Shown piece by piece: positions 208 through 4,833 of a stretch of DNA of 5,767 nucleotides. The stretch lies in IMG/VR virus record IMGVR_UViG_2681813274_000009, one strand, 5' to 3'. The position numbers were made by a program, and so were the translations under genes. Positions within the stretch are counted from its first letter, which is position 1; every line of letters starts with the position of its first letter. Below the pieces are notes generated by a model. That model was not told the DNA's origin. It saw nothing but the letters and a program-made list of their open reading frames with translations, and did not search any database. The stretch comes from a virus (Duplodnaviria; Heunggongvirae; Uroviricota; Caudoviricetes).

Positions 208-933
208 TCACTTTTCCGACACAATACGACCGGAGGAATCGACAATCTGTCGAACAATATCCCGGTGCTTGTTCAGCTCCCGCAACGCGGCGCAGACACG
301 CTCCCACTTCTGGACATGACTTTTCGCCCGACGCAGTTCGCGGTTTGCCATATGCAGCGATGGTAAAACCAGGTCATCCGCTTGCGTTTCGGTGAACGAT
401 GGCAACGACTGCACAATGTCCGCCACAGTTTCTGTTTTAATTTCTTCCTGTGTTGCAGCTTCCTGTACCGGTAACGCAACACCTGCTGGCTGAGGAAAGA
501 CTTTACCATCCGTTTCCGCTATGGATGCGGCTTTCGGCTCTGCCGGTAAATCAGCGCCCGGTATGCAGTACCGAAATTTACCGCCCTGATTCACGCGAAT
601 CAGACGCCCTTTGCTGATTGCCATGGCCAGCGATGAATTCGCCCGGCGGGAGGTAATCCCGAACATCAGTGCCAGCTCATCCGCCGTTTGTGGGCCATGT
701 TGTTCAATCGCCTCAGTCAGCATTTGCGCTGTCACTTTCGGTACCGGTGACACTGGTTCACTTTCACCAGCCTGAATCAGCCACCACATCGAACCCTTGT
801 TATCCGCTTCACCACGGCGCTTCAGTTTCCACAGTTCGTTGACCGCATCTTCACGGCTGATTCCAAGGCGGGACGCCACCACATGTGAAGAGGCTCTTTT
901 CAGTGCTTTCAGTGCGTCAAATACAGTTTCCAT
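208..933 (-). CDS. Hypothetical prophage protein (about 242 aa) with two winged-helix-like segments; function unknown
   Basis: Track ORF 208-951, which begins at a TTG. I prefer the ATG at 931-933 (METVFDALK...), which has a GGAGG SD 8 nt upstream. It sits directly downstream of the DnaC-like gene (stop 955-957) on the same strand. Two segments look like HTH/winged-helix ([39 protein letters not shown] and [32 protein letters not shown]). No family assignment I can support. Confidence 0.6.
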
Positions 934-954
934 TAAAACATCCTCCAACAAAAA

Positions 955-1319
955 TTACTTCACAACTCCCGGAAAGCTGACATTTGAACGCCAGCTATCC
1001 CAGTTAAACGTCACCCACCGACAACCGTTCATGGTCATGCGGTCCATAATCCTCTCACCAAGAAGCGTGCTCATTGCGGCATGATTCAGGTTTGTTAACA
1101 TCCCGACACTGCACAGTGATGCTGTCCGGCGATCAATTATCTGGTGCAATACCACCTGCTCGTTTTTCGTCTCCCGCTGAATGCCTATTTCATCCAGGAC
1201 CAGCAAATCAACCCCGCAAAGCTCCTGTAAAAATTTTTCACCGGATTTGCCGTTGTCGTAGCTGTCATGCAACACGCTCATGACATCAGACTCGGTGACG
1301 ATAATCACGCTGCGCCCCT
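955..1319 (-). CDS. DnaC-family helicase loader (phage-encoded DnaC paralogue, Rac YdaV-like); C-terminal about 121 aa visible, 5' end hidden in the N-run
   Basis: The translation GRSVIIVTESDVMSVLHDSYDNGKSGEKFLQELCGVDLLVLDEIGIQRETKNEQVVLHQIIDRRTASLCSVGMLTNLNHAAMSTLLGERIMDRMTMNGCRWVTFNWDSWRSNVSF aligns by eye with the C-terminal half of E. coli DnaC as I recall it (Walker B LLV(I)DEIG, MLTN sensor, LLGERVMDRM, WVIFNWDSYRS). The Walker A region would lie in the masked 1320-1892 segment. Stop at 955-957. Confidence 0.85.
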
Positions 1320-1892
1320 NNNNNNNNNNNNNNNNNNNNNNNNNNNNNNNNNNNNNNNNNNNNNNNNNNNNNNNNNNNNNNNNNNNNNNNNNNNNNNNNN
1401 NNNNNNNNNNNNNNNNNNNNNNNNNNNNNNNNNNNNNNNNNNNNNNNNNNNNNNNNNNNNNNNNNNNNNNNNNNNNNNNNNNNNNNNNNNNNNNNNNNNN
1501 NNNNNNNNNNNNNNNNNNNNNNNNNNNNNNNNNNNNNNNNNNNNNNNNNNNNNNNNNNNNNNNNNNNNNNNNNNNNNNNNNNNNNNNNNNNNNNNCCNNN
1601 NNNNNNNNNNNNNNNNNNNNNNNNNNNNNNNNNNNNNNNNNNNNNNNNNNNNNNNNNNNNNNNNNNNNNNNNNNNNNNNNNNNNNNNNNNNNNNNNNNNN
1701 NNNNNNNNNNNNNNNNNNNNNNNNNNNNNNNNNNNNNNNNNNNNNNNNNNNNNNNNNNNNNNNNNNNNNNNNNNNNNNNNNNNNNNNNNNNNNNNNNNNN
1801 NNNNNNNNNNNNNNNNNNNNNNNNNNNNNNNNNNNNNNNNNNNNNNNNNNNNNNNNNNNNNNNNNNNNNNNNNNNNNNNNNNNNNNNNNNNN
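1320..1892. other. Masked or unknown sequence (573 nt N-run with 'cc' at 1596-1597)
   Basis: Seen directly in the sequence. It hides the 3' end of the O-like gene and the 5' end of the DnaC-like gene, and causes the six-frame track to fuse them into one 644-aa ORF. Confidence 0.95.
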
Positions 1893-2883
1893 CGCTTACC
1901 GGGAGCAACCAGGGGTTTTCAAAATTCCGGTCCGGCCCAAAAAACGTCGTCGCTCGCTGAACAAATTCCGTTCCCGCTTTCCCGGTCGCCGCCAGGTATC
2001 TCGCGTAACGCCTCACACCATCCAGCATGGTCTCTGGTGGCACCCCCTCGCGCAATCTGGCCTTCCAGGCACTGAATGCGGATTTCTTCGGGTTTGCCCC
2101 GGCACGCAACGGGTATTCCCGCCAGACCTGTTCGAACACATCCGGATAATCCACTCGTCCCACAGGCTGCCCGGTGTTTTCCGGGGCTACCCGATCGGCT
2201 TCCCGCTGAATGGCGGAATCGGCTTCAGGCTGCTGCAGTTGGAGTGATTGCTCCGGCCTTGCGGTCATCACCTGCTGCACAGCGCCCGAATCGGCTTTCA
2301 GCGCATACGCTGAATCGGCTTCCGGTGTCGAGCCTGCTGGCTGACCAGGATTGACGGTCTGAACATCCCCTGCCTGGTTCGTGGCGTTTTTTACGCCATG
2401 GACCATAGTGTTTTGATCTTCTTTATCTGTATCTTTATCTGTATCTGTCGTGACTCGTCGTGACATGTGCGTGACATTTCGTGACGCGCCGTGACAATCG
2501 CCATTTTGTTCCCGCTTTCTTTCCCTCTCTCGCTGCGCCCTCTTGCGCTCTGCAGGAGATTTTGCGGTTTGCGAAATATTGCCGTTGTCCTCTTTAAGCA
2601 CCTGGCGTTTTTCCCATCCAGTGATTAAATCACCATCAAGTACCCGCCCCTGCATCGTCTGCAAAATTGAATCAATTACCTCTTCTGTCACGTCGAGCGC
2701 ACTTGCCAAATCTTCTGTCGTGACATCAATGTGACCTCGCGTGACATTTCGTGACGCGCTCACCAGGAGGTGGATATACACTGCCATCACTGTTGCAATT
2801 GGCTGCCCTGACACCCTGGCAATTGTTCGCCACTTAGGGTCATTTGGCATGTCATGCCATAATCTGAGCCAGGCGTTAGCCAT
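1893..2883 (-). CDS. Phage replication initiator / replisome organiser (lambda O-like role); 3' end hidden in the N-run
   Basis: Open frame from ATG 2881-2883 (MANAWLRLWHDMPNDPKWRTIARVSG...; GAGGTGA SD just upstream; the track starts at GTG 2889) into the N-run. It lies immediately upstream of the DnaC-like loader and downstream of the CII-like gene, as O/P do in lambdoid phages. It contains internal iteron clusters and a basic linker (KRAQRERERKRE). The visible C-terminal region reads YPDVFEQVWREYPLRAGANPKKSAFSAWKARL...GTEFVQRATTFF. Confidence 0.65.
2421..2444. repeat. Perfect tandem duplication of a 12-bp AT-rich unit (ctttatctgtat x2), flanking iteron cluster B
   Basis: 2421-2432 and 2433-2444 are identical. 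The local stretch 2408-2446 is AT-rich and immediately adjacent to the phased CGTGAC repeats, the expected arrangement for an origin unwinding element. Confidence 0.6.
2448..2495. repeat. Iteron cluster B: five direct CGTGAC repeats with helical phasing (candidate phage ori)
   Basis: CGTGAC at 2449, 2459, 2470, 2480 and 2490 (spacings 10, 11, 10, 10 bp), inside the O-like coding sequence. Includes an exact 21-bp repeat (2469-2489) shared with cluster A. Confidence 0.65.
2685..2760. repeat. Iteron cluster A: four phased (C/T)GTGAC repeats plus one inverted copy
   Basis: CGTGAC at 2719, 2740 and 2750 and TGTGAC at 2730 (spacings 11, 10, 10 bp). An inverted copy GTCACG lies at 2687-2692. The exact 21-mer gcgtgacatttcgtgacgcgc at 2739-2759 recurs at 2469-2489. 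Confidence 0.6.
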
Positions 2884-2954
2884 ACTCACCTCTTCTGATA
2901 CCGAATCTTTTTACTCACGAGTTGCCGGGAGCGATTCGATATGGCTATTGTCAG

Positions 2955-3380
2955 TCAATGTACTGCCACAGCATTTCCTGCCGGGCCACCACGGTTCATC
3001 TGATTGAAACCGGCGATTGCCACTGCGACAAAATCATCAGCGTCTCTCACCAGTCGTTCATGCGTCTCCACCAGTTCCCGAAAATAAGCTGAACTGTGGC
3101 TGCGCATTCGAGCCACCAGCGGAGGTGGCATTGCCCTTTCGATCGCAGGTAACAACGCCTGAATTTTTTCAACAGCGTCAGGGGTGTCTTTATCCAGCCA
3201 ACGGAAAATCTTTTGGGTGTTGAGATAAAGCGTGTTGTGCTTGCTGTCGTTATGCAGAACCGGAAACGTCATTCCCAGTTCGAAATAAACCCTGGTTATT
3301 TCAGCTGCCGGAACTTTTTCACCGTCCGGATGCGCCCAGGCTTTCATCGCCATGCGGATGTGTTCATGCTTGATTTTCAT
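2955..3380 (-). CDS. ydaT: YdaT-family protein (CII-like regulator in Rac-type prophages), 141 aa
   Basis: ATG at 3378-3380 overlaps the stop of the upstream Cro-like gene (ATGA overlap). The N-terminus MKIKHEHI... and the position between the Cro-like gene and the replication genes match my recollection of Rac YdaT. Family call is from memory, not a search. Confidence 0.6.
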   Translation of the reverse strand: MKIKHEHIRMAMKAWAHPDGEKVPAAEITRVYFELGMTFPVLHNDSKHNTLYLNTQKIFRWLDKDTPDAVEKIQALLPAIERAMPPPLVARMRSHSSAYFRELVETHERLVRDADDFVAVAIAGFNQMNRGGPAGNAVAVH

Positions 3381-3640
3381 GAATCAACCCCCGCCGATGG
3401 TTGTGTGTTAGCCTGAAACTCAGCAGGCAAGCCGTCAGTTGGGTTGGGGTAGGTTTTACTGTCAATCTCATGTGGGGTCACCACCCATCCCGTTGCTTCA
3501 CACCAACGTAATATTTTTTCTCCTGTAAGTTTTGCACGCCCCGTTATAACGTGGCTGACCATCCCTTGGGATGCGCCAACAATCTCAGCAAATGAACTCT
3601 GGGTTATATGAAAATGATGCAAATATTCTCCAAGATTCAT
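3377..3640 (-). CDS. ydaS: Cro-like HTH regulator, YdaS family, 87 aa
   Basis: Preferred start is ATG 3638-3640 (MNLGEYLHHFHITQSSFAEIVGASQGMVSHVITGRAKLTGEKILRWCEATGWVVTPHEI...), with AGGGCGG upstream. The track ORF extends further 5' through the N-run to 3763, which I consider an artefact. It is divergent from the repressor gene. HTH motif (SQGMVSHVITG) and the TPHE motif typical of YdaS/Cro-like proteins. Confidence 0.7.
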   Translation of the reverse strand: MNLGEYLHHFHITQSSFAEIVGASQGMVSHVITGRAKLTGEKILRWCEATGWVVTPHEIDSKTYPNPTDGLPAEFQANTQPSAGVDS

Positions 3641-3762
3641 AATCCGCCCTATGTGATGTGTTACCAATGCATAATTAATAGCACTGTTATTTTTAAAAGT
3701 AAATAGTGATACTATTTCAAAGTGATTAGCAATCTTATTAGAATNNNNNNNNNAGAAAATCA
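3641..3762. promoter_or_regulatory. Divergent OR-like control region with operator palindromes and candidate promoters
   Basis: Perfect 15-bp palindrome aatagtGATactatt at 3702-3716 and related site aatagcACTgttatt at 3677-3691 (centres 25 bp apart). Candidate plus-strand promoter TTCAAA (3716-3721) - 17 bp - TAGAAT (3739-3744), placing the transcription start in the masked 3745-3753 run, close to the repressor start codon. The 120-bp AT-rich spacer lies between divergent repressor and Cro-like genes. Confidence 0.5.
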
Positions 3763-4248
3763 TTGTCAGACACCGACCTCAACGCCGCCAGAAGACTGAA
3801 AGAAATCTGGATGGCAAAGAAATCTCAGTTGGGATTGACTCAGGAACGTGCGGCGGAAATTATGGGGTTTTCAACACAAGGGGCGGTAAGTCACTACCTA
3901 AATGGTCAAACCCCACTAAACCTTGAGGCTGTTCTAAAGTTTGCTGGCTTACTGAAAGTTCCCCCTGAGTCAATCAGGCCAGACATGGTAGATTTGCTGC
4001 AAATTGCAAGGATGTATTGTCGAGAACCACAGCAAGATAACATAGTCGCATTACCAGCAGACACAGAACAAACAGAGGATGAACTACCGTTTGCCGTAGA
4101 GCCGATGGAACGAGATTTAATCCATACGTTCAGAGCTTTTCCGAAAGAAGATCAAGAACACATGCTTCAGGAGATGAAAGATAAAAAAGAATCAATGGAT
4201 CGTACGGTTGCGCGGTGGTTAGCTGCACAAAAAGGCCGTCGCGCCTAA
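3763..4248 (+). CDS. XRE-family HTH transcriptional repressor (prophage repressor / RacR- or PaaR-like), 161 aa, no visible S24 peptidase domain
   Basis: N-terminal HTH (LTQERAAEIMGFSTQGAVSHYLNGQTPLNLEAVLKFAGLLKV) and an acidic C-terminal region. The start is uncertain: TTG 3763 follows the N-run directly with a weak SD, and ATG 3811 is an alternative. Stop at 4246-4248. Located where cI sits in lambdoid phages. Confidence 0.75.
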   Translation: MSDTDLNAARRLKEIWMAKKSQLGLTQERAAEIMGFSTQGAVSHYLNGQTPLNLEAVLKFAGLLKVPPESIRPDMVDLLQIARMYCREPQQDNIVALPADTEQTEDELPFAVEPMERDLIHTFRAFPKEDQEHMLQEMKDKKESMDRTVARWLAAQKGRRA

Positions 4249-4267: not shown

Positions 4268-4462
4268 ATGAGTACAGTCCTTTCCCCAATGGTTTCAGAA
4301 TTTGAGACAGTTGAGCAAGAAAATAGTTACAACGAATGGCTGCGGGCCAAAGTAGCAGCAAGCCTCGCGGATCCCCGCCCGGCGATTCCGCATGATGAGG
4401 TAATGGCGGAAATGGAACAAATTATTGCCCAAATTGCTGCTGCAACTCACAGAGGTGAATAA
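4268..4462 (+). CDS. paaA: Small antitoxin, PaaA2-like (partner of ParE-family toxin), 64 aa
   Basis: GGAG SD 9 nt upstream of ATG 4268. Stop TAA 4460-4462 overlaps the toxin ATG by 1 nt (TAATG). The sequence MSTVLSPMVSEFETVEQENSYNEWLRAKVAASLADPRPAIPHDEV matches my recollection of the intrinsically disordered PaaA2 antitoxin of E. coli O157 prophages. Recalled, not searched. Confidence 0.6.
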   Translation: MSTVLSPMVSEFETVEQENSYNEWLRAKVAASLADPRPAIPHDEVMAEMEQIIAQIAAATHRGE

Positions 4463-4777
4463 TGTTACCCGTTTTATGGCTACCATCTGCTCGTGATGAT
4501 TTGCGCCAGATCGTAGCCTACATAGCTAAAGAAAATCCCGCGGCAGCACGCAGAATGAAAATTCGAATTGAAACATCCGTTTTGCCGCTCACAGAGCATC
4601 CTTACCTGTNNNNNNNNNNNNNNNNNNNNNNNNNNNNNNNNNNNNNNNNNNNNNCTTGGTCTTCGTGAAATTGTAACTCATCCTAACTACATCATCCTTT
4701 ACCGAGTAACAGCATCAAGCATAGAAGTAGTAAATATTGTGCATTCTCGAAGACAGTATCCAGGCAAAAACAGTTAA
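4462..4777 (+). CDS. parE: ParE/RelE-family type II toxin (ParE2-like), interrupted by a 45-nt N-run with a frame mismatch across it
   Basis: N-terminal part 4462-4609 (MLPVLWLPSARDDLRQIVAYIAKENPAAARRMKIRIETSVLPLTEHPYL) and C-terminal part 4655-4774 (LGLREIVTHPNYIILYRVTASSIEVVNIVHSRRQYPGKNS) both show ParE/RelE hallmarks (DL..I..YIA..NP.AA; Y.I.YRV....IEVV.I.H.RR). The two parts are in different frames relative to the 45-N run. Stop at 4775-4777. Confidence 0.7.
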
Positions 4778-4792
4778 TTATTCCCGCCGACA

Positions 4793-4833
4793 GAACCACC
4801 NNNNNNNNNNNNNNNNNNNTAGGGTGGTTTTTT
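4793..4833 (+). terminator. Probable rho-independent terminator downstream of the toxin gene (stem partly masked)
   Basis: CCACC (4796-4800) and GGTGG (4823-4827) are complementary arms, followed by TTTTTT (4828-4833). The loop or extended stem lies in the N-run 4801-4819. Confidence 0.4.

Follow-up and report, generated by a model that had tools for sequence, protein, structure and literature searches.

The window analysed here, meaning the whole stretch of 5,767 nucleotides from the IMG/VR record IMGVR_UViG_2681813274_000009 (Caudoviricetes), is the early-right region of a lambdoid, Rac-like Escherichia coli prophage. Its minus strand carries a replication initiator gene whose own coding sequence holds two clusters of a short repeat (clusters A and B), an inverted copy of the repeat core and an AT-rich tract (Table 1). 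A comparison of this gene with its relatives in other phages and prophages leads us to regard the region as probably a two-part replication origin of the prophage, embedded in the gene of the initiator that would act on it. Clusters A and B themselves appear, from their pattern of conservation, to be DNA elements under selection and tied to the initiator.

Table 1. Features of the window. The strand of repeat cores is that of the GTCACG reading; gene positions count from the first nucleotide of the initiator gene (HTH, helix-turn-helix).
Feature	Position	Strand	Remarks
Cluster B	2449-2495	-	five GTCACG cores (coding-strand reading), 10-11 bp spacing; gene nt 389-435; candidate core initiator-binding array
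Cluster A	2719-2755	-	four phased GTCAC cores (3 GTCACG, 1 GTCACA); gene nt 129-165; candidate auxiliary initiator-binding array
Inverted core copy	2687-2692	+	27 bp from cluster A; gene nt 192
AT-rich tract	2405-2448		coding strand purine-rich; gene nt 436-480; hexamers ACAGAT/AAAGAT at 2420-2448; candidate DNA unwinding element
Imperfect inverted repeat	2375-2405		13-bp stem; beyond the AT-rich tract
Replication initiator gene	1893-2883	-	visible part, 330 codons; ATG start at 2883
Cro-like HTH gene	3377-3640	-	first of the minus-strand genes in transcription order
YdaT/cII-position gene	2955-3380	-	second in transcription order
DnaC/IstB-like helicase-loader gene	955-1319	-	C-terminal part, N-terminus masked; Pfam IstB_IS21, E 4.7e-8
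DUF1627 gene	208-951	-	last of the minus-strand series
CI-like HTH gene	3763-4248	+	upstream of PaaA2/ParE toxin-antitoxin pair
PaaA2 antitoxin and ParE toxin genes	4268-4777	+	PaaA2: PF21217, E 3e-23; interrupted by N mask

Repeats and AT-rich tract in the initiator gene

The hexamer CGTGAC, which reads GTCACG on the coding strand of the initiator gene, occurs nine times in the window against 2.15 copies expected by chance, and none of 200 shuffled sequences reached nine. All nine copies are confined to positions 2449-2755, eight of them on the plus strand (2449, 2459, 2470, 2480, 2490, 2719, 2740 and 2750) and one on the minus strand (2687). A preliminary description of the sequence had listed five such repeats at 10-11 bp spacing beside an AT-rich repeat, four phased repeats in a second cluster and an inverted copy near the latter. 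The coordinates of the five are all correct and the inverted copy is indeed where it was placed, while the count of four holds at the level of the 5-mer, cluster A consisting on the plus strand of three exact 6-mers and one TGTGAC (GTGAC at 2731). Some 260 bp separate the two clusters. In the complete 46-kb genome of phage Tritos, a relative, at least three GTCAC within 45 bp are found only at clusters A and B.

Each element overlaps a definable part of the protein. Cluster B codes for a disordered linker, CHGASRNVTHMSRRVTT, with an AlphaFold2 predicted local distance difference test score below 50 at residues 129-154. Cluster A codes for the end of helix 29-45 and for the loop 46-55 of the winged-helix domain (SASRNVTRGHIDVTT), the inverted copy for D-V-T in the turn before the predicted recognition helix, and the AT-rich tract for TDTDKDTDKEDQN. 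The repeats had been said to produce repeated peptide segments in the initiator, and these are present as ASRNVTRGHIDVTT and ASRNVTHMSRRVTT.

Across positions 2400-2459 the GC fraction drops to 0.325-0.375. The perfect 2 x 12-bp repeat described within the AT-rich tract (2421-2444) was recovered by Tandem Repeats Finder as 2.2 copies of TCTTTATCTGTA at 2420-2446 with 100% matches, and the tract also reads as 4.8 copies of a 6-bp period (2420-2448). The copy number of the hexamer differs between E. coli prophages, whose matches measure either 491 or 497 bp, and the encoded peptide occurs as TDTDKDTDKE or as TDKDTDKDTDQE.

The imperfect inverted repeat beyond the tract may possibly be part of the origin. 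Many relatives also have an inverted repeat rich in GC after the tract, a recurrence noted without a null model (loci L005, L095, L097, L098, L108, L111, L124, L130 and L154); in a good number of them and in ydaU of E. coli K-12 it takes the form of a C5...G5 palindrome encoding PPxxPP(R/E)G. The lambda origin likewise has a palindrome beyond its AT-rich tract. Promoter and terminator scans of positions 2250-3450 gave matches no commoner than in shuffled sequence.

Layout, motif and codon use in the relatives

A tblastn search with the N-terminal domain of the initiator matched one phage each of Aeromonas and Pseudomonas at about 74% identity, one from spring water at 48% and one of Ralstonia at 38%. 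All four have two phased-repeat clusters at the same two positions of the gene, and in all four a simple repeat rich in purines and in AT comes after the second cluster; the motif is GTCACG in the Aeromonas and Pseudomonas phages, CGAACGC in the spring-water phage and GCAACG in the Ralstonia phage. With a subsequent scan of a one-genome-per-species collection, for which the retrieval peptide patterns do not overlap the repeats, we obtained 65 loci, mostly from Proteobacteria. A scan of IMG/VR gave only 80 near-identical E. coli loci, which were not used for diversity. Within E. coli the module is widespread, being present in 1817 of 5426 complete genomes.

The loci were anchored at codon 1, with zone A defined as gene nt 100-250 and zone B as nt 300-530. 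Over these loci and five phages taken together, the order of an array and then an AT-rich tract is nearly universal. About 59 of 64 relatives have, immediately upstream of the AT-rich tract, an array of three to seven phased cores, and at least three copies of one C/G-containing 6-mer were counted in zone B of 57 of the 65 loci. The zone-B 6-mer was present at least twice in zone A at 38 of these 57 loci, against 1.9% in a mismatched control in which the motif was sought in zone A of a locus with another motif. Scored by phased 5-mers, both clusters are found in at least 44 of 59 scorable loci, a lower bound given that three more loci were miscalled when the script chose the wrong word. The distance between the clusters is about 220-280 bp in the relatives and 350 bp in one locus. 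Two clusters had been called unusual in the preliminary description, which is true relative to lambda; within this initiator family two are the normal state.

Six motif types were encountered (GTCACG, GTAACG, CGAACG, GCAACG, TGTAACG and ACTACG), every one of which ends in ACG. The motif is shared by both arrays and tracks the subtype of the initiator N-domain (GTCACG, GTAACG, CGAACG, GCAACG). GTCACG-type loci come from Escherichia, Aeromonas, Pseudomonas, Bordetella, Acidovorax and Chromobacterium and differ in their immunity genes and helicase partners, and Pseudomonas has both GTCACG and CGAACG types. Because it is kept across hosts, immunity genes and helicase partners, the motif follows the initiator and neither the host nor the neighbouring genes. 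An inverted 5-mer recurs at gene nt 192 in most GTCACG-type relatives, and inverted copies are also found in the Ralstonia and GTAACG types.

These observations bear on the identity of the protein that would bind the repeats. Phased short repeats could suit any DNA-binding protein that forms arrays, such as a host protein, Cro, a cII/YdaT-like activator or the loader. However, the motif tracks the initiator subtype over hosts of three proteobacterial classes, and a single host genus, Pseudomonas, has different motifs (GTCACG and CGAACG). The motif also survives the replacement of its neighbours in the phages Tritos and vB_EcoS-640R1, whose immunity genes differ and whose initiator gene is not followed by a DnaC-like one. 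Pseudomonas phage phi1 keeps it with a different helicase partner and without an annotated YdaT gene. We therefore consider a factor other than the initiator very unlikely.

Codon use allows selection on the DNA to be told from selection on the peptide. For cluster A we compared 24 distinct GTCACG-type sequences with 66-100% protein identity. In the cores, V47 is GTC in 24/24, T48 ACG in 24/24, G50 GGT in 24/24, H51 CAC in 23/23, V54 GTC in 24/24, S44 TCA in 23/24 and T55 ACG in 23/24. The entropy of these seven codons is at most 0.25 bit, against a median of 1.53 bit for 52 other codons of conserved residues, none of which reaches 95% use of one codon (Mann-Whitney p=1e-5, a value that is only indicative since the sequences are related and were treated as independent). 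The spacer codon R49 is free, four codons being used. Elsewhere, the four-fold codons that the sequences share agree in 32% of their third positions, a value close to saturation. In the inverted copy the V65 codon is GTG in 21/21. A second motif clade, CGAACG, has TCG AAC GCA ACC GAA CGC GGN CGA ACG fixed apart from the N, and relatives without cluster A have the same E-R-G residues with varied codons (GAG AGG, GAG CGA, GAC CGT). With synonymous sites frozen inside the cores and saturated in their surroundings, cluster A is selected as DNA and is not a by-product of the peptide.

Could cluster A nonetheless have arisen only as the by-product of a conserved peptide (SRNVTRGH..VT), or as a functionless relic of a duplication from cluster B? 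The two clusters do encode similar peptides and have a 21-mer in common, yet neither version explains why core synonymous sites are invariant in the 24 sequences beside a free spacer codon, why the same freeze is seen in the CGAACG clade, or why the motif of cluster A switches along with that of cluster B in at least four subtypes. The 21-mer, for its part, gives no sign of recent copying, and altogether such an origin of cluster A is highly unlikely.

The 21-mer is, as had been reported, exactly identical at 2469-2489 and 2739-2759, but this identity does not carry the trace of a copying event. Across the GTCACG clade, conservation is limited to the cores and a few bases beside them, and the spacers vary. 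The longest exact match between clusters A and B averages 10.6 nt within a genome and 10.4 nt between genomes (maximum 21), and 10% of the cross-genome pairs match over at least 17 nt. Recent duplication or gene conversion was rejected as its source, as clusters of one genome match each other no better than those of different genomes. The 21-mer is thus two cores plus the commonly used AAAT spacer, with no separate evidence of duplication. The loop encoded by cluster A varies in length by steps of about seven residues, equal to two repeats (E. albertii, GTAACG types, Ralstonia), and repeat number in cluster A therefore drifts as units are gained and lost. Gain or loss of whole repeats at the edges of the clusters would by itself give a 10.5-bp periodicity in the distance between them.

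The AT-rich tract follows a similar logic. Within the gene's first 660 nt, the 40-mer poorest in GC comes immediately after cluster B in nearly every locus, and it drops to 23-30% GC in loci of 60-69% GC. Codon counts in the tract are 162:8 for GAT:GAC, 148:44 for AAA:AAG and 60:6 for ACA:ACC, whereas the same pairs in the N-domain stand at 299:280, 114:138 and 67:93. The tract is evidently kept AT-rich by codon choice, which points to its selection as DNA. Its position also bears on whether clusters A and B might be two alternative origins, each able to fire, as could be proposed from phage SPP1, whose organizer binds the separate sites oriL and oriR (PMC5737612). A strongly AT-rich tract follows cluster B only, and the lowest-GC 40-mer lies beside cluster A only in a few low-GC genomes. 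Having no AT-rich tract of its own, cluster A is unlikely to be an independent origin, and two alternative origins are in our judgement a very improbable arrangement.

The initiator protein and its neighbours

The initiator ATG is preceded by a ribosome-binding site, GAGGTGA, at 2889-2895, and the 3' end of the gene falls into the first of four runs of N in the window (1320-1892, 3745-3753, 4610-4654 and 4801-4819). This run fuses initiator and loader into a single open reading frame (ORF) of 644 aa in the output of the ORF finder. In an unmasked close relative (L003) a 345-aa 'phage replisome organizer' is directly followed by a separate 248-aa ATP-binding protein, so the masked ORF is really two genes. 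Initiators of close relatives, from which the masked C-terminus was read, are 345-356 aa long and have a DnaT-like C-terminal tail.

At E<=0.01 the initiator of the window gave no Pfam match at all, and thus none to the lambda O family (Phage_rep_O). At E<=10 only weak matches to HTH_Crp_2, PhyR_sigma2 and Phage_rep_org_N were returned. Residues 5-125 align with the whole of PF09681 and of TIGR01714 at sub-threshold scores, 12.8 bits (cut-off 23.3) and 15.5 (cut-off 49.8) respectively. PHROG 3729 ('replication initiation protein') matches a full-length close relative at E 7e-257, and RefSeq calls close relatives 'phage replisome organizer'. The N-domain has a winged-helix fold of the kind seen in the N-terminal domain of DnaD. 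We take the initiator to be a winged-helix protein like the DnaD N-terminal domain and perhaps like the replisome organizers, not a homologue of lambda O.

The genes around the initiator vary among its relatives. In the window, in L003 and in Aeromonas pAEv1818, initiator and putative origin are accompanied by a gene for a DnaC-like loader. The E. coli phages Tritos, Evi and vB_EcoS-640R1 have a 356-aa initiator with no DnaC-like gene after it, the next gene encoding a 141-aa 'LygF' or hypothetical protein. A different C-terminus is attached to the N-domain and putative origin module in Pseudomonas phi1 and Ralstonia Firinga, where the next gene encodes a large 'replication protein P' in phi1 and a DnaB-like helicase in Firinga. 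The phi1 initiator (L005, KT887557.1 33,800-32,901; locus nt 2501-3400) is unannotated in GenBank, yet it is an intact ORF of 299 codons. Many database entries for the N-domain are short, truncated gene calls of 130-226 aa (P0042, P0060, P0061, P0073, P0099, P0101, P0109), and several of these predicted proteins also contain HNH endonuclease domains (PF01844/PF14279). On the plus strand of the window, the order of the CI-like gene and PaaA2/ParE resembles the paaR2-paaA2-parE2 three-gene module of O157 prophages.

The Rac prophage of E. coli K-12 offers a side comparison. Its ydaU gene (L154, NC_000913.3 1421119-1421976) has the same layout with an unrelated N-domain (DUF1376), and YdaU shares the C-terminal tail (AIPPGFRG) and the DnaC-like neighbour of the window-type initiators. 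Three repeats of (G)ATGTTCAA (gene nt 391, 424 and 435) and an inverted one (nt 452) stand just ahead of an AT-rich AATAAAGATACAGATAAAGATCTAAAAA tract, and single copies lie at nt 148 and 232 in the part coding for the N-domain. This repeat region may be the Rac origin oriJ.

A candidate two-part origin and its parallels

The preliminary description had proposed an origin inside the initiator gene, a proposal that gains support from the motif that both arrays share and switch together, from the frozen codons and from the conserved AT-rich tract. In the mechanism we envisage, the winged-helix N-domain of the initiator would bind the five repeats of cluster B, one per helical turn and all on one face of the DNA. 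The asymmetric tract of AT-rich hexamers beside them would then melt, and the C-terminal part of the initiator would recruit the host helicase through the DnaC-like loader encoded next door. Cluster A and the inverted copy, located some 260 bp farther upstream within the codons for the DNA-binding domain, would serve as a second array for the same initiator, most likely joining cluster B in one looped nucleoprotein complex that sets the readiness of the origin to fire. Initiator binding, unwinding of the tract and looping are all read from sequence features and are proposed as such. By the comparative data cluster A is functional DNA, for which a stimulating and a restraining role both fit.

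We read cluster B and its tract as an origin of the lambda/SPP1 type because their arrangement matches that of origins already proven. Lambda has its repeats at almost the same position in the gene, about nt 350-480. In lambda and Shiga toxin (Stx) phages the middle of gene O, between the parts for the DNA-binding N-domain and the C-terminal domain, holds the iterons together with an AT-rich tract; as in the window, initiator-binding repeats are followed along transcription by the AT-rich tract, and then by the helicase-loader gene (PMC7466680). The initiator of the window nevertheless falls outside the O family by Pfam, and its loader is DnaC-like where that of lambda is P-like. Lambda's iterons, to which the initiator binds as dimers, are 19 bp long with internal dyad symmetry, whereas the cores of the window are direct and 5-6 bp long, one per helical turn. 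The family of the window also differs from lambda in having another array, some 260 bp upstream and within the part coding for the DNA-binding domain.

The nearest relation of the initiator is to the replisome-organizer/DnaD-like group, its N-domain aligning end to end with the Phage_rep_org_N models (SPP1 G38P type), albeit below their cut-offs. In SPP1, oriL and oriR are tens of kilobases apart. SPP1 oriL has its AB boxes and unwinding element inside gene 38, so that a replisome-organizer-type initiator, G38P, likewise has a gene holding its own repeats beside an AT-rich unwinding element, and this organizer also binds a second, separate site (PMC5737612). In the window the second site is about 260 bp off in the same gene, no third site is found in the complete Tritos genome, and the family differs from SPP1 in having Proteobacteria as its hosts.

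Two sets of sites for one initiator are also known outside these phages. Satellite phage P4 has 8-bp initiator-bound repeats at ori and at crr, the latter being required in cis; the two lie kilobases apart and the P4 initiator is a primase-helicase. Iteron plasmids of the F/FIB and P1 types have two arrays of one initiator-binding repeat, thought to pair through the initiator; these flank rep in non-coding DNA, the second acting as a brake on copy number, whereas both arrays of the window are coding (PMC11983097). Phage-inducible chromosomal islands (PICIs), among them the Staphylococcus aureus pathogenicity islands (SaPIs), likewise combine short iterons in two sets with an AT-rich region that melts (PMC6092414). 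The PICI sets stand on either side of that region, downstream of pri-rep, while both sets of the window share one side of the tract and are part of the initiator gene. The origin proposed here would work like that of lambda without belonging to the lambda family, and two-set iteron layouts are already known in plasmids and PICIs.

The plasmids suggest a different part for cluster A, that of a negative control element. It might handcuff with cluster B, in cis or between sister copies, or it might block RNA polymerase within the initiator gene, and in either mode less initiator would be made, and transcriptional activation of the origin and re-initiation would be curbed. In plasmids of the F/FIB/P1 type, Rep-mediated pairing lets a second set of iterons inhibit the set at the origin (PMC11983097). 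Cluster A sits in the 5' part of the initiator's own transcript, its inverted copies are conserved and operator-like, and members without cluster A exist, as would be predicted for a dispensable regulator. Yet the sequence cannot tell a negative from a positive role, and limitation of copies is not usual in lytic phage replication. We hold a negative role to be possible, though it is not the reading we favour.

Several points weigh against a two-part origin in which cluster A takes part. About one fifth of the relatives, mostly the more distant ones, have cluster B only (e.g. L124, L142, L145, L147, L149), and cluster A is therefore not essential to the mechanism of the family. Members without cluster A do not have more repeats in cluster B (mean 4.27 vs 3.91, p=0.72); compensation for a missing cluster A is thus unsupported, and there is no sign that the repeats of the two clusters are interchangeable. 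The relatedness of the sequences behind the codon test and the shortness of the cores, 5-6 bp beside the 19 bp of lambda's iterons, have to be counted on the same side, as does our failure to find in the searchable literature any report of binding, unwinding or origin activity for a member of this family.

Nor did we find in the searchable literature anything specific on an origin for this initiator family or on GTCACG repeats; a paper on Pf-5 deals with an oriV of plasmid type and has no bearing on the window. A description of two arrays in an initiator gene, one of them in the part coding for the DNA-binding domain, was not found either, in a search that did not reach the main review of phage replication modules (Weigel & Seitz 2006).

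The overlap of cluster A with the loop at residues 45-55, which links the first long helix to the helix-turn-helix, raises the question of whether array and loop are functionally coupled, the loop helping to read or space the repeats. The loop sequence is strictly subtype-specific (RNVTRGH..VT, NATERGRTQ, TATQGNADATRGN), but a loop that is specific to a subtype and grows by units is no evidence of coupling, since embedding alone would give it, and we think coupling improbable. If it were true, one and the same segment would serve as DNA site and as part of the reader of that site. Both would be rewritten at once whenever origin specificity changed, and the DNA-binding head, encoded between clusters A and B, would always travel with its sites in mosaic recombination.

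For the two-part origin that we favour, the wider meaning lies in the spread of the module through prophages of many Proteobacteria, where it is mostly annotated as 'hypothetical protein'. The comparison predicts for it an origin, an unwinding element and at least four natural initiator/repeat specificities, pairs that offer a good system for studying how an initiator and its sites change specificity together. In cluster A, a candidate protein-binding DNA element lies over the coding sequence of the domain presumed to bind it, with a freezing of codons that can be measured, and the repeats would explain why the initiator gene resists synonymous recoding. Cloned repeats are candidates for trial as origin decoys against these prophages, including those of Shiga-toxigenic strains.

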